From the NCBI GenBank assembly GCA_965223265.1, contig OZ244999.1:5856001-5920000 (forward strand): a stretch of DNA of 64,000 nt. Direction: 5' to 3'. The translations under genes and the position numbers were made by a program. The stretch's first letter is position 1; each line of letters opens with the position of its first letter. This DNA is from Planctomycetota bacterium. Its GTDB lineage: Bacteria > Planctomycetota > UBA8108 > SXIK01. This document shows positions 27,764 through 41,571 of the stretch, in pieces. A model generated the notes under the pieces. That model did no database searches. It worked only from the letters and a program-made list of their open reading frames with translations, and was not told the origin of the DNA.

Positions 27764-27970
27764 TCATTCACATGCGCTCGGACAACCCGCAATCGACGCA
27801 CAGCCGCTTCCAAGCACAGGCTCCGGTCCAGACGCGAAGAGGTGCAGGAGGGTGTACATAACGTCAGCGAGACCGACCACCATGTCGCCGTTGGTGTCGA
27901 GGAGAAGATCGTTCGCAGCCGCCGTCGTACATGGAAGCTCCGACGCGCCGTGGAAGAGATGGTCGAGCAT
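27764..27970 (-). pseudogene. Orphan 3' fragment of a dockerin-tagged secreted protein
   Basis: LDHLFHG..LPC...LLDTNGDMVVGLADVMYTLLHLFASGPEPVLGSGCASIAGCPSACE parallels the C-terminus of the CotH protein; the first EF-hand is missing. Confidence 0.75.
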
Positions 27971-29460
27971 TAGGGAAACAGTCTTATGGGACGTGGGCAG
28001 CCTTGTGGAGGTGGACGGCAGAGTACCGCCACCCGGCCACGAGGGGGTACTCCGGGCACTGGCGGGCGGGGTGCCGGGCAGCCCGTAAAAGCCCTGGGAT
28101 ACTCGTGAACATCCCTTGCATAGTCATTGCGGTACATGTCGTAGCAGGCCTGGCTCATCGCACAGTCCACCAGCGTCCTGACCCTGGCAACGATCTGCTG
28201 CCTCGCACGTTCGGCTGCAACACGACCGGCCACAATGGGACTGTTCGGCTCTGGTCTTACTGACCTCAGATCGTCAATCAACAGCCTGCGGTGTCGCACC
28301 ATGATGGCATAGGCATCGAGCACGTGTCCTGCTTCATGATCCAGAGTCCACGTGAAAGGACAGCTATTCGCAGGAAAATCGCTCGCGATGTAAATGGTGT
28401 TGTCCACGTTGGGGAAAACCTCTGCGCTCCATAGAGCAACCCTCCAACTTCTACCACTCCGTCTTGGCCTCGTATCTGGAATTGTCGTCATCCGAATGCG
28501 GTGATGCGTCAATCCATAGGCTACGCCTCCTCCGGATCTAGCACCTATTTGACGTGAGCTCTCGGAGTGGTCTATATCGCTCACTGACGAACTGGCTGGA
28601 TGGGCAGTAACGACTGGTTGCCGCTGGATCCGGATCCTGCCCACGTGGCGCGTAACAGGGATTGGCAAGGAAGCAGGACCACCAGGAGCCCGATTTGGGT
28701 CACCCTGACTTTTGACGCCCTTCTGCTGTATCACATGTGCTAGCTCATGCGCCAGTAACCGTCGTCCCTCCCTCGTGCCCGGCGCGTACTGCCCCGCGTT
28801 AAACACAACGTTCTGCCCCACCGTGAAGGCACGGGCCTGAGTCCTTTGTGCCGTCTTCTGTGCGTGGCTGTCGGTATAGATACGTACCTTACTCAAGTCG
28901 TAGCCAAACCGCGGCTCGAAGAAAGCCCGGGCCGATGCTGGCAAAGGCTTCCCCCCACCTCTCAAAGCCTCTATAGGAGCGGTTATCTCCCCTGTTGTCA
29001 GCGGACGTTGTCCCGGTGCCAGTTTGGCCTGCAGCGGCTCCTCTTCTTTTTCTGCTTGCCGCTGTACAGTTGAGGTCCGCCGATCAGGAGCTGCGGCAAA
29101 GGGAGGACCAGGCATGGCCATCACCTGATCGGCAACACGATCCGCTTCCTGCTCGTATTTGTCGCCCGGTTCACCGATGGAGAGCTTGGACTGCGATCCT
29201 GACCCGTGGAGGATCTGGCGCATCTCGCCCCGCTGTGTTTTCATTGACCTCACCTGACAGCGGGGACAGGTGCCATCGCAGGCACATTTCCGTTGGATCG
29301 TCTGAGACTCCAGCAGACGCAAGACGCCCTGGTTGCCGATCGTTCGCTGGGGCTGCAGCACCGCATGTGGCAGTGCAAGCAATCCTACTGTCTTCCTCGG
29401 GCGCGGAGAGCTCTTGTGCAGAGCTGGCTGTATGCTTTTGCTTGCGAATTGAAATCCCAT
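27970..29460 (-). CDS. DUF4157 (eCIS core) domain protein with a second C-terminal HExxH domain
   Basis: IGNQGVLRLL, IQRKCAC, PGDKYEQEADRVADQVM, FEPRFGYDLSKVRIY, ARAFTVGQ, LLAHELAHVIQQ; C-terminal LDHEAGHV. Confidence 0.88.
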   Translation of the reverse strand: MGFQFASKSIQPALHKSSPRPRKTVGLLALPHAVLQPQRTIGNQGVLRLLESQTIQRKCACDGTCPRCQVRSMKTQRGEMRQILHGSGSQSKLSIGEPGDKYEQEADRVADQVMAMPGPPFAAAPDRRTSTVQRQAEKEEEPLQAKLAPGQRPLTTGEITAPIEALRGGGKPLPASARAFFEPRFGYDLSKVRIYTDSHAQKTAQRTQARAFTVGQNVVFNAGQYAPGTREGRRLLAHELAHVIQQKGVKSQGDPNRAPGGPASLPIPVTRHVGRIRIQRQPVVTAHPASSSVSDIDHSESSRQIGARSGGGVAYGLTHHRIRMTTIPDTRPRRSGRSWRVALWSAEVFPNVDNTIYIASDFPANSCPFTWTLDHEAGHVLDAYAIMVRHRRLLIDDLRSVRPEPNSPIVAGRVAAERARQQIVARVRTLVDCAMSQACYDMYRNDYARDVHEYPRAFTGCPAPRPPVPGVPPRGRVAVLCRPPPQGCPRPIRLFP

Positions 29461-31918: not shown

Positions 31919-32100
31919 ATCGACTTCCCCCAGAAATCAATCGCTTCACCTGTAACTCCCGGTATCCCGCCGACTCCGAATATTCAGAACCGTATCGACT
32001 TCTTCGAGAAGTCGATACCGTTCTGACGGATCCTTTCTTCGCGGGAGACGCGGAGTTAGCAAAAGAGGGATCAGCTTCTCGGAGAAGTCGATACCTTTTT
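31919..32100. repeat. Three palindromic units ATCGACTTCT-N3-AGAAGTCGAT with ~75-bp period
   Basis: Copies start at 31919, 31994 and 32070; the middle copy extends to a near-perfect 43-bp inverted repeat (31984-32026). Confidence 0.7.
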
Positions 32101-33953: not shown

Positions 33954-34562
33954 CTATGTCAGGAGCCGCCGGATCCGCCGCCTTAGGTAAGGCAGAACCT
34001 CGCTTTCAAACCAAGGGTTGTTCTTGAGCCAAATGTTGTTCCGAGGGCTAGGGTGAGGCAGTGGGATGCGGGCGGGTCTGTACTCCTTCCACGAACGCAC
34101 CGTTTCCGTAAGCGTCTGTTCTCGTCGCCCGAGATGCCAATCAGTGGCGTACTGCCCAATAACGAGCGTTACCTTCACTGAGGGCAAGCGCTCGAGTACA
34201 GACTCTCTCCATGCCTCAGCGCACTCCGGCCGTGGGGCCAGGTCTCCGGATTTCCCAGTGCCGGGGTAGCAGAACCCCATCGGCAGGATCGCGATTTTCC
34301 TGGCGTCATAGAACGTGGCCTTCGATACCCCCATCCACTCACGCAAGCGATCGCCGCTCGGATCAGCGAAGGGCACCCCGGATTCATGCACCCGGCGACC
34401 TGGGGCTTGACCGGCAATCAGTACCGGAGCTTCGGAATGCACCTGGAAGATGGGGCGTACTCCATCCTCCAGGTGCTCTTCGCAGAGGCGGCATGCACGA
34501 ATGTCGCGCAGAAGTTGCGTCAGGCGCTGGTTCGCAGCTCGTGATGGCTTGCTGTGTTTCAC
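33954..34562 (-). CDS. Uracil-DNA glycosylase superfamily protein
   Basis: CRLC, GQAPG, FADPSGDRLREW, MGFCYPG, LPHPSPRN. Confidence 0.92.
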   Translation of the reverse strand: MKHSKPSRAANQRLTQLLRDIRACRLCEEHLEDGVRPIFQVHSEAPVLIAGQAPGRRVHESGVPFADPSGDRLREWMGVSKATFYDARKIAILPMGFCYPGTGKSGDLAPRPECAEAWRESVLERLPSVKVTLVIGQYATDWHLGRREQTLTETVRSWKEYRPARIPLPHPSPRNNIWLKNNPWFESEVLPYLRRRIRRLLT

Positions 34563-34597
34563 TTGCGACGCGTCCCGTGGCTAGCGTCCGCGACGGA

Positions 34598-34948
34598 CTA
34601 CGCCTGGTAGAACTTTTCGGAAACTACCCGCCCGTCATTCCAGCGTCGAACGAGGACCTCTTTCCAGACAATTGGCTCGCCGCCTGCGCCGGTCATGTCG
34701 AAGGTGAACTCGCTCATTGTGAGGTCATCACCCACGCTGTTGCCGTGGAGCGTGGCGCCGTTGAAACTCTTGAGAGACGCGAAGAAGCCACTGAGGTGAT
34801 TGTGCTGAGCCTGCCGACTCTCGCGACGAGAGCCATCGGGTTCCTCGAACACACACTGATCTGCATAAAATTTCTCGAGGGCCGCAAGGTTTTCGCCTTT
34901 GGCAGTCAACTCATCCAACGCAACAACTCTTTGCTCGAGATCACTCAT
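34598..34948 (-). CDS. SnoaL/NTF2-like protein
   Basis: 116 aa, ALEKFYAD..FEEPDG, VRRWNDGRVVSEKFY; GAGGA RBS. Confidence 0.85.
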   Translation of the reverse strand: MSDLEQRVVALDELTAKGENLAALEKFYADQCVFEEPDGSRRESRQAQHNHLSGFFASLKSFNGATLHGNSVGDDLTMSEFTFDMTGAGGEPIVWKEVLVRRWNDGRVVSEKFYQA

Positions 34949-35041
34949 GTGGGGTTCCTCTCGTATAGGTTGGGTGTTACTAAAACATCCGCTGCTTCGT
35001 TCCGGATTGACGGAGCCGGGGATCGCGAGCGCAATTCTCGC

Positions 35042-35416
35042 TCAAGGGACTTCTACGATCTCTGGCTTTAGGCTCTCGGTAAAGCGCAGCACCTCGCCTT
35101 TCTCCCGTTCTGGGACTTCGAAGGTCTCCAGAGCTGCGGTTAGGTGGTCGACCGCGCGCCTCCAGTCTTCTTCGGCGATGCGCATCCCAATATGCGCGGT
35201 CTTCATGTCACGGCCCGTGTAAACCATCGGTCCGCCCGACGATGCGCACAGAAAGTCGACCAACAATTGCTGCTCGCGCGCGATCCCGTCCGCGCCCCGG
35301 TGATCGTAGGAACGGCGCAGTTTGTCGTCATCTTTGATCCGCACCATCAACGCGTCTGTGACGGCAGCAATGGCGTCATACCCGCCCAGGCGTTCGTAAA
35401 GAGACGTGTTCGACAT
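35042..35416 (-). CDS. Group I truncated hemoglobin (cytoplasmic)
   Basis: SLYERLGG, GGPMVYTGRDMKTAH (proximal His); GAGGA RBS. Confidence 0.93.
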   Translation of the reverse strand: MSNTSLYERLGGYDAIAAVTDALMVRIKDDDKLRRSYDHRGADGIAREQQLLVDFLCASSGGPMVYTGRDMKTAHIGMRIAEEDWRRAVDHLTAALETFEVPEREKGEVLRFTESLKPEIVEVP

Positions 35417-35483
35417 GCTGGTATCCTCCCTAAGACGGCTGGTCCGGCCAGATCGAGATGATCGCACCATGGCTCATCCCGAA

Positions 35484-37130
35484 TCACTTGAGTGGGTAAT
35501 CGGTCAACACGTAGTCGTGGCCGACGGAATGGCATCCAAAGCAGCGCGCCACGCCGTTACTGCTAGCACGTGGTGCGCTGGAATCAGTGGTGCTAGTCAC
35601 TTCGTACCAAAACCAGCCCTTGCCACCGTCGCTTTCGTCCTGCGTCTTCAGCATGACGGCCCAGCCTTCGAGCTTGCCGCTAGCATCGAACATCTCCTTC
35701 ACAGCTCCTGCACCCTTGGGGAGCGCTTTCCTGCCAGCCTTGAGCGCGTCGTTCATCCTTGCGTTCATGAAAACCTTCACCGGGCGCCCGAACTTGGAGT
35801 GCGGACCGCTCGAAGGGTGCATTTTCGATTCACTGGCCGGGAAGTTCTTGTACTTCCCATCGACAAGGAATTGGAACAGCGGCTCTTTCCCGGTCGGAAC
35901 GCCTCCGACTGAGCCAACCGGCGTTTCTGAACTGGGTTGTCTCGCCATCTCGCCAGCCATCCTGAGCCGGCGCATGGCTTCTTTACACTCCTTGCATGTA
36001 TTCCTGTCGTGCGACTTAGCTCCTGGTTTGGCTGCTCTCAGGACAGGGTAGTACTGAGTGAATACAAAGTCCTCCGCCGCAGCCTTCTCGTGACACTGGT
36101 TGCAGGCGAGGCGCGACTGCACTTTCGTTGTATTCGCCAGGGGATACTCATGGCCGAAACTAAAGTAGGCCCAATTGCCGGGCTGGTCGGGGAAGTGCTC
36201 CTTGCTCTTGATGGTGACCTCCAGGCCGATGAAGTCCCCCATGAAGTAGCCCGCGCCGCTAACGGCCTGCTTGCTGCCGACGCTGATCAGTTCTTTGATC
36301 AGAGTCGTCCCTTCGCGAAACTCACCTGTCTTCGTATAGTGTGCCCACGAACCACGGTCTATATAGACAGCGTGAAACTCCGGGAACGGTGCTGCCCCGG
36401 CGTTCATATCGTGTGGGGTGAGGGGCGTCCCGACGTAGACCCATTCGCGATAGCCCTCAGGGCGAACAAGCTGCTTGTTCCCGTCGAACTTCGGCCCTTT
36501 CCATTCGGTAGAGGCCGCCTTCGAGCCCTTTGCGGCTCGTAGAACGGGGTAGTACTGTGTGAATACGAAGTCGTCAGACGCCGAGCCCGCATGGCACGCG
36601 TTGCATGCTTGCGACGGGAATCGCTTGGCCGTGTCGGCCAGCGGATACTCATGGCCGAAGCTGAAGTAGGCCCAATTGCCGGGCTCGTCGGGGAAGCGCT
36701 CCTTGCTCTTGACGGCAGCCTCGAGCCCGATGAAATCGCCCATGAAGTAACCTGCTCCGCTAGTGGCCGCCTTACTGCCGACGCTGGTCAGCTCCTTCAC
36801 GAGGACTGTACCCTCGCGAAACTCACCCGTGTTCTTGTAGTGCTCCCAGGACCCCGGGTCGATGTAGACGCTGTGGAACTCCGGGAACGGAGCGTTACCG
36901 TCGTTCATATCGTTGGGAGTGTGCGGCGTGCCCACGTACACCCAGGAACGATAGTCCCTCGGACGGAAGAGTTCCCCTGCCGTGGTAAACTTTCCCGGGA
37001 AACCTACACCCTGGGCGAGAGCCGCCGTGTTTTGTCTGTGATCGACGGTCAGAGCGGCGACGACCAGGGCCACGGCGGCACAGGTCGACAGCACCCACAG
37101 CGATAGACGAATTGTTCTTCGATGGAACAT
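35484..37130 (-). CDS. Three-domain cytochrome P460-family protein
   Basis: Signal peptide; two near-duplicate P460 domains (YRxWVYVGT, FPEFHxVYID, GTxLxKEL, FIGLE, GNWAYF, CNACH/CNQCH); divergent third domain (GAVKEM, GWFWYE, CFGCH); linker CKECK. Confidence 0.92.
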   Translation of the reverse strand: MFHRRTIRLSLWVLSTCAAVALVVAALTVDHRQNTAALAQGVGFPGKFTTAGELFRPRDYRSWVYVGTPHTPNDMNDGNAPFPEFHSVYIDPGSWEHYKNTGEFREGTVLVKELTSVGSKAATSGAGYFMGDFIGLEAAVKSKERFPDEPGNWAYFSFGHEYPLADTAKRFPSQACNACHAGSASDDFVFTQYYPVLRAAKGSKAASTEWKGPKFDGNKQLVRPEGYREWVYVGTPLTPHDMNAGAAPFPEFHAVYIDRGSWAHYTKTGEFREGTTLIKELISVGSKQAVSGAGYFMGDFIGLEVTIKSKEHFPDQPGNWAYFSFGHEYPLANTTKVQSRLACNQCHEKAAAEDFVFTQYYPVLRAAKPGAKSHDRNTCKECKEAMRRLRMAGEMARQPSSETPVGSVGGVPTGKEPLFQFLVDGKYKNFPASESKMHPSSGPHSKFGRPVKVFMNARMNDALKAGRKALPKGAGAVKEMFDASGKLEGWAVMLKTQDESDGGKGWFWYEVTSTTDSSAPRASSNGVARCFGCHSVGHDYVLTDYPLK

Positions 37131-37281
37131 CGCGACGTTCTCCTGGAAGCGGTTCCTTGTCCCGACTGTTGTCCCGGGAGTCGGTAGTTGCGCTGCTCTT
37201 CTTGGGCCCAGAACTGACGAAGCGCTCAGCACCTGCCAACTGCGGATTCAGCCGAGATACGTGCAAAAACTGCCGCGCGAG

Positions 37282-37803
37282 CTACGTACGCTCAACTATG
37301 TCTGGCTTGAGCGTGCCGATGATCGAGAGCAGTTCTCGCTTTTCTTTGGCGGGCACTTCGAACCTGTCCAGAGTATCCACCAGGTGGTTCACAACGACGT
37401 TGAAGTCTGCTTCCGTGATTCCCAGCCCTCCGTGAACGGTTTTGGCAGGTCTGCTGAGGATCTTGCACGGCCCGCCCGTGACGTTGCAGACCAGATTGAT
37501 GTTTTTCTGGATGAACGACTGACGGGTGTCCGTACCCATCCCCTTGAAGAAGGGTCCGACCTGGGGATCGATGAAGAGCTTCGCGGCGAAGTCGTTCACA
37601 ACCGCCGAGACGGCGTCGTAGCCGCCGAGTCGCTCATAGAGCGTGCGGCCGGTCGCGGACGCGCTTGGCTTGGCCGCAGGTGGTACATCCTGGACCGCGG
37701 ATTTGGCGAGGCGCGAGTGGCTCGAGCAGCCTAGCGCCGCCAGAACGACGGCTATGGCTCCGAGGGGCAGCACGAGGCAGCGAGAACGAGTGATCCGGGA
37801 CAT
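37282..37803 (-). CDS. Group I truncated hemoglobin with lipoprotein signal
   Basis: MSRITRSR...VVLAALG-C lipobox; TLYERLGGYDAV, TGGP, KTVH; AAGGA RBS. Confidence 0.9.
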   Translation of the reverse strand: MSRITRSRCLVLPLGAIAVVLAALGCSSHSRLAKSAVQDVPPAAKPSASATGRTLYERLGGYDAVSAVVNDFAAKLFIDPQVGPFFKGMGTDTRQSFIQKNINLVCNVTGGPCKILSRPAKTVHGGLGITEADFNVVVNHLVDTLDRFEVPAKEKRELLSIIGTLKPDIVERT

Positions 37804-37942
37804 GGAATTGGTTTCCTTTCTGAGGTTTGACGTCGCGAGCTGGGGTTGATCCAGATGCCGAGCGGATTGCCTTCACTACCTATAGCTGCGAGAATGGTGG
37901 TCGGATTTGGACAACCACTTGCAGGGTTTCTTGCGGATTTCT

Positions 37943-38551
37943 ATGCGGGATCGTCAATCGAACCAGGTGACAGTTCTTTTGGAAGCGATTCGCCGTGGCG
38001 AGTCGCCGGCAGCAGCTGAACTCCTGCCACTCGTCTACGACGAGTTGCGTAGACTTGCAGAGCGTGAAATGGCGAAGGAGCGCCGAGGGCACACGCTTCA
38101 GCCGACGGCTCTCGTCCATGAGGCCTATTTGCGCCTCGTAGGCGGCGCGGAAGTGCGCTGGGAGGGACGCGTGCACTTTTTTCGTGCTGCGGCTCAAGCG
38201 ATGCGACGGATTCTGGTCGATTCTGCTCGCCGACGGGCGACCCTGAAACACGGGGGCGCGGCCCGGGTACCGCTGTCGGAAGCCAGTGCCGTTGCCGATG
38301 AACCGCGCCCAGCCGAGCTGCTAGCACTCGACGAGTCCCTCGACCGACTGGAACAGCGAGACCCGAGGAAGGCGGATGTTGTGAAGCTGCGCTACTTTGC
38401 AGGGCTGTCCATAGAAGACACGGGGGCAGCCCTGGGCGTGACTCCCCGGACCGTCACCCGTGATTGGACCGCGGCCAAAGCATGGCTATTTCGTGATATC
38501 ACAGGAGATCACGAGCAGGCACACAAAGGGTCCCCGACTAGTGGACGCTGA
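37943..38551 (+). CDS. ECF sigma factor, TIGR02999/kinase-associated type
   Basis: LLPLVYDELRRLA, HTLQPTALVHEAYLRL, RRILVDSAR, RTVTRDW..AKAWL. Confidence 0.93.
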   Translation: MRDRQSNQVTVLLEAIRRGESPAAAELLPLVYDELRRLAEREMAKERRGHTLQPTALVHEAYLRLVGGAEVRWEGRVHFFRAAAQAMRRILVDSARRRATLKHGGAARVPLSEASAVADEPRPAELLALDESLDRLEQRDPRKADVVKLRYFAGLSIEDTGAALGVTPRTVTRDWTAAKAWLFRDITGDHEQAHKGSPTSGR

Positions 38552-41180
38552 TCGCTGGGAACGTGTCTGGTCCGTCTTCCACGCTGCACTGGAACGAGTC
38601 GAGCGGGATCGAGCCGGATTCGTCGAAGAAGAGTGCGGCACTGACAAGAGTCTGCGCATCGAAGTTTTCGCGCTGCTACGCTCGCATGAGAGCGCAAAAA
38701 CGTTCCTCGAAGACCCACTGAATCCACGCCCGGCTTCACCGCAGGCGATGATTGGTCAGCTCGTTGATCGGTACCGACTACGCTCGGTGATCGGTTCCGG
38801 GGGGATGGGCACAGTCTTCCTCGCCGATCAGGAGGAGCCGATCAAACGCGCCGTAGCATTAAAGGTCGTAAAGCTCGGAATGGATACAGCGGAGGTCGTC
38901 GCGCGATTCGAATTGGAGCGTCAGAAGCTGGCAGAGCTTAACCATCCTAACGTCGCTCTAGTGTTCGACGCTGGTGCAACAGAGAACGGTCGACCGTACT
39001 TTGTGATGGAGTACATTCCGGGGATTCCAATCACGGATTATTGCGACGCGAACAGCTTGGGGATCGGCGATAGGATAGAGCTCTTCCTCCCCGTCTGCGA
39101 GGCCCTTGAGCACGCACACCGACGGGGGACTCTTCATCGTGACATCAAGCCGTCGAACGTTCTTGTTGAGGTCGTCGATACTCGAGCGGTCCCGAAAGTA
39201 ATTGATTTTGGCCTCGCGAAAGTCGTCGACGGTCGGACGCGCGTTGCAGCTCCTGATACCGGCTACGGGAGGATGATCGGAACGCCTGAGTTCATGAGTC
39301 CGGAACAGGCATTGGGGGTCTCCAACATAGACGGAAGGACTGACGTCTACTCTCTCGGCATGCTTCTCTACGTGCTACTCGTTGGTAGCCACCCCCTTGT
39401 CAAAGAGCTGCAGAAGGAGTTCCCGGAGGATCTGCGTCGCAAGATTCGGGATTTCGACACTCCACGGCCGAGTGCTCACCTCAAGCAACTTTGTGAGGAC
39501 AGTATCGGAATTGCTGAACGTCGAGCGACGAACGTTCAGTCGCTCGACCAGCAGATCCGTGGTGACCTTGATAACATCGTCATGAAGGCGACGGCCAAGG
39601 AAAGGAACCATCGGTACGGATCGGCATCGGAATTCGCAGCGGACCTGAAACGGTACGCGAACTCAGAACCAGTTCTCGCGGTCCGCAGAGAAAAACGACC
39701 GGCGAGGCTGGCGGTCATCGTGGCTGTCGCTGTACTTGCCGTCCTCGTTGGTGGAGTTGCTGTTGCCATCTTCAAGTCGTGGTCGAGCGAAAGAGTTGCT
39801 CTGGCGGTACTTCCCTTCGCCACCGTCGGAGGAGATTCACGGCAAGATTACTTCAGTGACGGACTCACCACAGAGATCATCTATCGCCTGGGGAGAGTCG
39901 CCCCCGAAGATCTTGTGGTCATCGGTCATACAACGATGCTGCGGTACAAAAACAGCGAGAAATCGACCGACGAAATAAGCAAGGAGTTGAAAGTCGACTA
40001 TCTACTTGAAGGTAGCGTGAAATATGAAGGTGACCGTCTCTGGATCAATGCTCAACTCATCCGAACAAGCGATCAGACTCACTTGTGGGCCGAGAGTTTC
40101 GAGACAACGACCGCTGATGTCATTACGACGCAGCTCAAGCTTGCCCTCAATGTCGCACGGAACCTCGCTGTCGAGGTGCTACCGAAACGAAGTCGGATTG
40201 ATAAGTCTGCCGTCGTCGATCCACTGGCATACAAGGCGCATCTCAATGCGCGCCACTTTCGATCCATGGTCTCCGAGAACGGGCTTCGGAAGGCCATCGA
40301 ACACTTTCAGATCGCACTCGATCATGATTCGAGTTTCGCAGACGCATACGCCGGAATGGCTGCCTGCTACTGCCTGCTTTCGGGTCACGGCCTCGAGGTC
40401 GATCAGCCAAGCGCCTTAATGCCGAAGGTGAAAGACATGGCAGAAGCTGCTCTTGCCTTGGACGATGAACTTTCGGAGGCGCATGGAGCGCTTGGCATGT
40501 CCAAGCTAAAGTACGAATGGGACTGGGAAGGGGCGCGAACGCGGTTCCAAAGGGCAATCGAGTTGGATCCGAACAACCCCTTGTCTCGCATCTGGTATTC
40601 CTTCTACCTGTCCTCCCACGGGCGGCATGACGAAGCCATCGCCCAAGTCGAAACGGCCAGAGAGCTTGATCCGTTTTCAAAGGTCTCCAACGTCAACCTC
40701 GCCTGGCAGTACTACATGGCACGGCGGTACGAGAAAGCGCTCGAAGAGTTCAATCATAGCCTGGAGCTGTTTCCGGAGTTCTGGGTCGCCCTCTGGGGGC
40801 GTGGCCTCGTATATGCCCAACGCGGTCTCAGCAAGGAGGCTGTTGCCGACCTCAAGGGTGCGGTTGAGCGATCCCGAAACGACCAATCAGCTCTCGGCGG
40901 GTTGGGCTTGGTTTTCGCTAAATTCGGAGAGCGAGAAGAGGCTGAAAGAGTTGTCGAGTCGCTGACAGAACTGTCGCAGAACACGCATGTTCCACCGACG
41001 AGCGTTGCTGCGATCTATGGCGCTCTCGGCGATATCGATGAGGCGTTCCAATGGCTCGAGAAGGCTTACAGGATTCGCTCCAGGTCGATGGTCTGGCTCA
41101 GAGTCGGCCACGAGTTCGACCCCTTTCGTGGTGACCCTCGGTATCAAGACTTATTGCGGCGCATGAGACTGAATGACTAG
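38541..41180 (+). CDS. Membrane Ser/Thr kinase with TolB-like and TPR C-terminal domains
   Basis: GSGGMG, VALK, HRDIKPSN, DFG, GTPEFMSPEQ; TM helix; LAVLPF..YFSDGLT; TPRs; GTG overlaps the end of the sigma gene. Confidence 0.93.
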   Translation: MDADRWERVWSVFHAALERVERDRAGFVEEECGTDKSLRIEVFALLRSHESAKTFLEDPLNPRPASPQAMIGQLVDRYRLRSVIGSGGMGTVFLADQEEPIKRAVALKVVKLGMDTAEVVARFELERQKLAELNHPNVALVFDAGATENGRPYFVMEYIPGIPITDYCDANSLGIGDRIELFLPVCEALEHAHRRGTLHRDIKPSNVLVEVVDTRAVPKVIDFGLAKVVDGRTRVAAPDTGYGRMIGTPEFMSPEQALGVSNIDGRTDVYSLGMLLYVLLVGSHPLVKELQKEFPEDLRRKIRDFDTPRPSAHLKQLCEDSIGIAERRATNVQSLDQQIRGDLDNIVMKATAKERNHRYGSASEFAADLKRYANSEPVLAVRREKRPARLAVIVAVAVLAVLVGGVAVAIFKSWSSERVALAVLPFATVGGDSRQDYFSDGLTTEIIYRLGRVAPEDLVVIGHTTMLRYKNSEKSTDEISKELKVDYLLEGSVKYEGDRLWINAQLIRTSDQTHLWAESFETTTADVITTQLKLALNVARNLAVEVLPKRSRIDKSAVVDPLAYKAHLNARHFRSMVSENGLRKAIEHFQIALDHDSSFADAYAGMAACYCLLSGHGLEVDQPSALMPKVKDMAEAALALDDELSEAHGALGMSKLKYEWDWEGARTRFQRAIELDPNNPLSRIWYSFYLSSHGRHDEAIAQVETARELDPFSKVSNVNLAWQYYMARRYEKALEEFNHSLELFPEFWVALWGRGLVYAQRGLSKEAVADLKGAVERSRNDQSALGGLGLVFAKFGEREEAERVVESLTELSQNTHVPPTSVAAIYGALGDIDEAFQWLEKAYRIRSRSMVWLRVGHEFDPFRGDPRYQDLLRRMRLND

Positions 41181-41189
41181 TTGGCGCAA

Positions 41190-41390
41190 ACTCATGCCGC
41201 CGACCCACCTCCACGGCGATCAGATCGTTCTCGGCCGCAAGGGGACATCGGCGCAGGTTGTCGGAGAGCGTTCGAAGAGCTTCTTCAAAACGATCGAGCC
41301 AGTGCGATGCCGTCATCGGCGCAGTCGCGGCAGCACGAAGGTAATCGCTACGCAGATTCGTTCTCACGTTCGCCGTAACGACGACGCGCT
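41190..41390 (-). pseudogene. RelE/ParE-type toxin remnant
   Basis: RVVVTANVRTNLRSDY..APMTASHWLDRFEEALRTLSDNLRRCPLAAEND, truncated; no proper start codon. Confidence 0.65.
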
Positions 41391-41406
41391 CGGCCGAATG
41401 ACGTTT

Positions 41407-41571
41407 TCAACGGGCTGCTAGGCCAGCCTTGATCCCGGCTACAGCCTCATCCTGATCTCGCTGGAAGAGGCGCAAAGGGTGTTCGAGCACAGCCTCACGA
41501 TTCGCAAATCGACCGCTCTCGATCTCTCTCTGAACGAACTCCTCGAGCTCTGGTGAAATGCTCTCTGCCAT
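41407..41571 (-). pseudogene. ParD-like ribbon-helix-helix antitoxin remnant
   Basis: SISPELEEFVQREIESGRFANREAVLE..LRL; ends early, directly upstream of the toxin remnant. Confidence 0.7.

Follow-up and report, generated by a model that had tools for sequence, protein, structure and literature searches.

Cytochrome P460 paired with an exported truncated haemoglobin in a planctomycete: a possible periplasmic hydroxylamine and nitric oxide module with a predicted dedicated sensor

Introduction

The closest described relatives of the gene cluster considered here are the cytochromes P460 of Nitrosomonas and Methylococcus, the group I truncated haemoglobins (trHbs) and the ECF43-type pairs of sigma factor and kinase. 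The cluster lies in a 64,000-nucleotide stretch of a Planctomycetota genome (contig OZ244999.1, positions 5,856,001 to 5,920,000), the whole of which is called the window. It encodes an exported group I trHb (trHbL), a cytochrome P460 with three domains (d1, d2 and d3), a cytoplasmic group I trHb, a SnoaL-like protein and a protein of the uracil-DNA glycosylase (UDG) superfamily. Divergent from these are genes for an extracytoplasmic function (ECF) sigma factor and a Ser/Thr kinase.

The d1 and d2 domains match the P460s of N. europaea (2JE2) and Nitrosomonas sp. AL212 (6AMG) at about 200 bits, with 49-56% identity in structural alignment, and share the Phe cap, Lys and Glu of Nitrosomonas P460. 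In the AL212 enzyme, Ala, Gln, Asp and Leu variants of the distal Glu bind hydroxylamine (NH2OH) and nitric oxide (NO) without turnover, and the Glu is required (PMC6457333). The d3 domain has the Lys-plus-Ala pattern of the inactive AL212 P460; AL212 also has a Glu-type copy (PMC6457333). Unlike Nitrosomonas P460, the window protein carries three domains per chain and is linked to globins and a sensor, in a genome where no ammonia monooxygenase (AMO) was found. In Methylococcus capsulatus, cytochrome c'-beta has been proposed to bind NO from P460 (PMC11928373). The window protein is similar in combining a catalytic haem with a predicted NO-binding haem in the same fold. However, the M. capsulatus genes are not adjacent (PMC6427953), while the window domains are fused and d3 keeps the Lys.

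Like Mycobacterium tuberculosis trHbN, with which it has 32% identity, trHbL has a 2/2 fold and HisF8. In trHbL the Tyr/Gln network of trHbN gives way to Ala B10, Phe E7 and Asn E11, and a signal peptide and a Cys pair are added. The enzymatic O2 chemistry of trHbs is tied to TyrB10, GlnE7 and GlnE11 (PMC11904497). The cytoplasmic globin resembles Shewanella benthica HbN (TrHbN-2) in its apolar B10 and its TyrCD1, a residue linked in S. benthica HbN to peroxide reactivity. It differs in having no HisB13, and the available part of that paper showed no P460 link for S. benthica HbN (PMC11904497). The divergent pair resembles the ECF43 pairs EcfK/PknS and EcfP/PknT, in which a membrane Hanks kinase with periplasmic tetratricopeptide repeats (TPRs) stands beside an ECF factor bearing QxTA, the threonine motif of kinase-activated ECF43 sigma factors (PMC13147305). 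It is set apart from them by a CxCLLxGHGxE motif, by a sensor region found also on winged-helix regulators and by other target genes.

What P460 does in organisms other than ammonia oxidisers, and the reason for having both active and inactive forms, are left open by PMC6457333 and PMC11928373. The combination of genes had not been recognised as described in a preliminary description of this DNA. Searches of titles and abstracts found no P460-truncated haemoglobin cluster; subscription journals and supplements were outside that scope, and a genomic-context table there could matter. The available text of a 2025 review (PMC11928373) has no word beginning with globin, operon, fusion or domain, a search that would miss "hemoglobin". 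The parts are known families; what appears undescribed is their conserved combination, together with the pocket of trHbL and the motif of the sensor.

Linkage of trHbL and P460

P460 and trHbL form a conserved pair across several phyla. In loci seeded with trHbL (the best 80 of 125 metagenome loci, many of them short), P460 was present in 28, the cytoplasmic globin in 6, SnoaL in 4 and UDG in none. Nineteen of the 28 linked P460s lie within 525 bp. The fraction was 21/38 where the locus has a 3 kb flank and 10/14 where it has 2 kb to either side. Of the 23 trHbL clusters at 90% identity, 9 had a P460. Reciprocally, 51 genome loci seeded with P460 contained trHbL in 7, UDG in 4 and a SnoaL match in 3. 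trHbL was found in 9/40 genomes with P460 fusions (several copies broken), compared with 2/301 and 3/401 in the phylum samples. In the controls, P460 was within 1.5 kb of none of 27 other Acidobacteriota group I globins, and a generic trHb and P460 were together in none of the 13 same-phylum genomes having both, as compared by eye.

A natural fusion, P0247, joins a signal peptide, a trHbL-type globin and a Glu-type P460 in one chain. Its globin is 63% identical to trHbL, with both Cys replaced by Ala, and its P460 part is 62% identical to d1. In addition, globin and P460 distances correlate over 18 loci (rho 0.59), to which kinship contributes. The preliminary description had named, as a check, conserved synteny of P460 with two trHbs, with or without SnoaL and UDG. 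The trHbL-P460 part of this is borne out by the 28 loci and the fusion; the second globin and SnoaL recur at the low counts given, and UDG is in none of the 80 trHbL loci. The exact five-gene order was found nowhere else among the loci fetched, but the core pair is conserved.

In four other trHbL loci (L102, L113, L116 and L121), DUF488, a non-OxyR LysR, a lactonase-like propeller and DoxX recur near the globin gene.

The triple cytochrome P460

The P460 begins with a hydrophobic signal or anchor. Its AlphaFold model consists of three beta-sheet domains with a mean pLDDT (predicted local distance difference test) of 76.7. The d1 and d2 domains are 74% identical to each other. Alignment to Nitrosomonas P460 identified in each a capping Phe (F82/F249), a Lys (Lys112/Lys279), a Glu (Glu137/Glu304) and CxxCH, with K112 and K279 lining up with the Nitrosomonas cross-linking Lys. 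All the features of a catalytic P460 looked for, namely CxxCH with the P460 beta fold, the cross-link Lys, the distal Glu and the capping Phe, are present in both domains. Judged by sequence, d1 and d2 hold the residues needed for NH2OH oxidation, as the assignment of P460 as an NH2OH oxidiser in the preliminary description would predict.

The third domain has Lys478, Ala491 at the Glu site, a GPH motif and CxxCH. Pfam and Atlas place it in the P460 superfamily; d3 alone is too divergent to match a P460 in the PDB by sequence. It has Ala491 where a catalytic P460 has its distal Glu base, and it retains the cross-linking Lys that a cytochrome c'-beta lacks, K478 being invariant in the alignment and equated with that Lys on a shared KE motif. 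Across 36 full-length triple P460s (the window's own among them), chosen from the best 120 of 565 matches, the catalytic site is Glu in 35/36 d1 and 36/36 d2, and Ala in 35/36 d3. Ala was also found in all 45 d3-type domains matched in the loci.

A two-domain d1-d3 fusion is the commoner form and occurs in Acidobacteriota, Bacteroidota, Pseudomonadota, Gemmatimonadota and others. Where d3 is missing, the Glu-type P460 gene is often accompanied by a separate Lys-plus-Phe partner (14 domains). Together, these fusions and separate partners make the combination of one active-type and one inactive-type haem a recurring design. The triple form was in 0/40 relatives, and the genome has no second P460.

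The linker between P460 domains carries an HD-x3-CxxC motif (window 35960-36010, residues about 374-383), which is found in 33/120 homologues and is a possible metal site or disulfide. The CKECK of this linker was considered as an NrfA-type CxxCK haem site and rejected, since the fifth residue of HD-x3-CxxC varies.

Other P460 arrangements were observed. In seven trHbL loci (L085, L089, L101, L105, L112, L131 and L066) the P460 has Asp at the Glu site, a residue that is inactive there in AL212, and several globins of these loci are of a GluB10/ThrE11 type. In two loci (L056:4682-5788 and L061:1813-2715) a class I cytochrome c, which could be a built-in acceptor of electrons, is fused to a Phe-type P460; both loci also contain a Glu-type P460 plus both globins. 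The idea that tandem P460 is unique to the module was rejected, as frames with two or three weaker domains are found in several same-phylum genomes. In one same-phylum family (G243, G269, G308, G156 and G230), frames of 540-580 amino acids have two or three weakly scoring P460-fold domains.

The exported globin

Both globins have the 2/2 fold, HisF8 and Gly-Gly motifs of group I truncated haemoglobins; for trHbL the fold was predicted (Foldseek probability 1.0), and for the cytoplasmic globin it was judged from sequence. Lys E10 joins the pocket residues of trHbL named above, and its Cys pair lies in a CxxTGGPC motif with a predicted disulfide. It belongs to a tight clade: an N-terminal extension of at least 20 residues is present in 114 and the CxxTGGPC pair in 117 of its 120 best homologues. 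A membrane-anchored globin had been proposed; the LAALG-C lipobox of the window copy agrees with this by pattern only, and with a lipobox in just 3/120 homologues anchoring is not a general feature. In 77 locus copies, Phe E7, Lys E10 and His F8 are present in all (77/77), and B10/E11 vary as coupled pairs, Ala/Asn in 61 and Glu/Thr in 16.

The TyrB10 with GlnE11/E7 network of the TrHbN-1 NO dioxygenases is replaced by Ala/Asn in trHbL and Met/Leu in the cytoplasmic globin. Since the TyrB10/GlnE11 pocket is missing from both, classic NO dioxygenase activity of either is unlikely, and the NO/O2 chemistry of the canonical trHbN kind first attributed to them is not supported.

The Cys pair together with export was also considered as a mark specific to trHbL and rejected, because the two features occur together in many other group I globins of Acidobacteriota.

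The divergent kinase, sigma factor and sensor motif

The kinase has a predicted membrane helix (residues 392-410), followed by a predicted extracytoplasmic TPR-containing region. The sequence CYCLLSGHGLE occurs in this region at residue 609 (about 40365-40397), with the consensus CxCLLxGHGxE. This type of sensor region is abundant in Acidobacteriota. However, of 154 matches to it in 24 chosen genomes, the top four are all trHbL neighbours, scoring 371-393 bits against at most 307, and have CxCLLxGHGxE in common. The motif is in 0/20 generic paralogues and occurs once in the window's own genome. A pattern search found it in 4/401 Acidobacteriota genomes. Three of these are the trHbL carriers, where it adjoins trHbL each time, and in the fourth it is about 6 kb from a broken d1-d3 P460; of the four, one had served as the centre of the search and another had already come up in the P460 search. 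Viral contigs did not contain the motif. In the motif-bearing Acidobacteriota the sensor region is fused to a winged helix; in the window it is fused to the kinase beside the sigma factor.

The sigma factor has the QxTA threonine as QPTA and an adjacent membrane Hanks kinase, as in an ECF43-type pair, a likeness that rests on the motif and the neighbouring kinase and used no ECF group classifier. The divergent kinase is linked to the module, a connection missing from the preliminary description. It is predicted to be the module's dedicated membrane sensor and, by analogy with the ECF43 pairs, predicted to phosphorylate the ECF sigma factor. CxCLLxGHGxE is a candidate for a new site of redox sensing. 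Prediction of a complex between the sensor region and trHbL gave a score of 0.00, which is evidence in neither direction.

The cytoplasmic globin, SnoaL and UDG

The cytoplasmic globin has Met B10, Tyr CD1 and Leu E11, and its TyrCD1 is common to its closest structure. One further cytoplasmic-type globin is encoded elsewhere in the genome. SnoaL copies 46-53% identical to that of the window sit no more than about 2 kb from trHbL.

The UDG-like protein scores 19.8-23.9 bits against characterised family 4 and UdgX proteins, for which the curated cut-offs are 125-250, and so falls outside them; its closest structure is an uncharacterised protein, for which a literature search gave no paper. The UDG family is common, occurring in 24/40 P460 genomes, and it is near P460 in 4, two of which are congeners. 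In favour of a link, the nearest homologue found (72%) is directly behind a lipoprotein trHbL in genome G136, without P460. DNA repair had been regarded as an integral part of the module. This is not supported, given the count of 0/80 trHbL loci and the few carrier genomes with UDG near P460, and the gene is best treated as an occasional, loosely attached add-on.

Gene organization and genome setting

Table 1. Positions of the cluster genes and the divergent regulatory pair in the window
Feature	Position	Strand	Remarks
Exported group I trHb (trHbL)	37282-37803	-	PF01152; lipobox LAALG-C
Triple cytochrome P460, 548 aa	35484-37130	-	three PF16694 stretches
Cytoplasmic group I trHb, TrHbN-2-like	35042-35419	-	best PDB match Shewanella benthica HbN
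SnoaL_2 / SnoaL-like (NTF2-fold) protein	34598-34948	-	recurrent accessory
UDG-superfamily protein, GQAPG motif	33954-34562	-	nearest structure 3IKB; loosely attached
ECF sigma factor, QPTA motif	37925-38551	+	TIGR02999; predicted sensor output
Hanks-type Ser/Thr kinase with TPR-containing region	38541-41180	+	predicted dedicated sensor

The preliminary description of five co-directional genes with gaps of about 35-150 bp and a divergent ECF sigma/Ser-Thr kinase pair is confirmed. From trHbL to UDG the gaps between open reading frames (ORFs) are 151, 64, 93 and 35 bp, and the ECF gene is separated from the trHbL gene by 121 bp. The five genes lie on one short-read contig with zero differences in each of three runs, which represent two samples of one study and may be the source data. 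Their GC content at third codon positions is 0.66-0.76, near the mean of 0.71, which gives no hint of recent transfer, and the locus has no tRNA that would mark an island. Neither a sigma-70 promoter-like site nor an internal minus-strand terminator was found, and FNR, NsrR and sigma-54 patterns did not match.

The genome is 9.18 Mb in one contig and 91.65% complete. At this completeness, AMO, NirK and NosZ were not found genome-wide, the AMO search matching no control either, and there was no real match to NrfA or NirS. The genome does encode narGHJI, Hcp and cytochrome c assembly genes. About 160 kb from the cluster is an octahaem gene of the hydroxylamine oxidoreductase family with eight CxxCH (L136, G000:C1:5730626-5733879), which stands behind Rieske and cytochrome b genes. 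Its closest structures are 4QO5 and 6H5L, which we take to be reductive enzymes. The cell could plausibly produce NO or NH2OH itself.

Proposed mechanism and alternative explanations

The best explanation, to which we give an even chance, is a conserved, patchily distributed module in which a dedicated sensor would control periplasmic NH2OH oxidation and NO buffering. What was seen directly is gene content, linkage, one fusion and active-site residues; the steps that follow are inferred from them, and the hydroxylamine/NO role is predicted from genes. The exported P460 would receive three c-haems, with d1 and d2 forming the haem-Lys cross-link and converting two NH2OH to nitrous oxide (N2O) through Fe-NO intermediates, as in the N. 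europaea enzyme. The d3 domain, with Lys and with Ala at the base position, would bind NH2OH or NO without turnover, like the AL212 P460, and could be a buffer or a pseudo-dimer partner. The exported globin would act beside P460 as an NO/O2 binder or redox partner, not as an NO dioxygenase of the classic kind. Stress may be sensed in the TPR region, through thiol or metal chemistry at its Cys-x-Cys...His motif, upon which the kinase would phosphorylate the ECF sigma factor and the divergent genes would be transcribed; in Acidobacteriota a winged helix would take the place of kinase and sigma factor. The cytoplasmic globin, SnoaL and UDG would be add-ons. Nitrate respiration in the cell itself, or nitrifiers nearby, could supply the NH2OH and NO.

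Several observations weigh against this explanation. P460 binds its substrate weakly, a poor fit to detoxification. The published assays are run at millimolar NH2OH (PMC6457333). P460 makes Fe-NO species and is itself NO-sensitive (PMC5872139), and is therefore not simply an NO sink. The link with trHbL is not obligate: 31/40 P460-fusion genomes gave no trHbL, and no d1-type P460 was found in the trHbL-bearing genomes G755 and G136. Several copies are broken by frameshifts or insertion sequence (IS) elements. The P0247 fusion is a single sequence, on two contigs. The regulators adjoining trHbL in loci L053 and L056 do not have CxCLLxGHGxE, the motif is in 0/371 genomes of another phylum, and the motif-bearing Acidobacteriota may be close kin.

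Oxidative-stress genes are also among the neighbours, Msr and a catalase-peroxidase with an OxyR-like LysR. These would suit a module for peroxide or oxygen stress, whose P460 pro-enzyme and TyrCD1 globin would use up hydrogen peroxide or react to it, with the CxC motif as a thiol switch for peroxide that times P460 maturation. P460 cross-linking does depend on peroxide (PMC11928373) and TyrCD1 of S. benthica HbN reacts with it (PMC11904497), but a GHC motif is in just 2/11 neighbouring LysR proteins and the NH2OH-specific Glu is strictly conserved, so that we consider this unlikely. Because the cross-link is peroxide-dependent (PMC11928373) and P460 is NO-sensitive (PMC5872139), the hydroxylamine and rival readings overlap. 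We put at the same low level a gas-sensing relay, in which NO or O2 would be bound by the exported globin (possibly His/Lys six-coordinate) and the signal passed from it to the TPR sensor, with P460 as one of several outputs. The invariant LysE10 and coupled B10/E11 pairs would agree with it, as would G755, where trHbL adjoins a motif-bearing regulator even with no P460 found. However, a kinase/TPR match was found in only 7/80 trHbL loci, and the sole fusion found links the globin with P460, not with the sensor. Least probable is a chance gathering of mobile cargo genes that share no process. Variable gene order, frequent IS elements and the lack of a triple P460 in 40 relatives point that way, and it is largely true of UDG; against it stand the reciprocal linkage with its negative controls, the fused globin-P460 protein and the restriction of the sensor motif to these loci.

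A more specific form of the hydroxylamine/NO module is doubtful. It is an undescribed periplasmic NH2OH/NO pathway of heterotrophs, in which the P460 fusion, with catalytic and non-catalytic parts, passes NO or electrons to a dedicated exported globin and a new CxC-x4-H TPR domain, wired to a winged helix or to a kinase and sigma factor, senses reactive nitrogen directly. If this were true, N2O would have an overlooked source in such non-nitrifying cells, and if the Glu-type domains are active, heterotrophs could turn leaked hydroxylamine into N2O. For P460 in organisms that are not nitrifiers, the module would provide a role that can be tested. It names likely P460 partners, the exported globin clade and the Ala-type domain, plus a regulator whose inducer can be read with a reporter.

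Other features of the window

A 35-bp element at 41389-41423 has about 155 matches genome-wide and lies inside a short ORF, which looks like what we assume to be a ParE-type remnant beside a ParD-like ORF. Downstream of a GntR gene, three related copies spaced 75-76 bp occupy 31919-32098 and include a hairpin with 20-bp arms (31984-32026, 95% paired). A protein with an eCIS (extracellular contractile injection system) core domain (PF13699) is encoded at 27970-29460.

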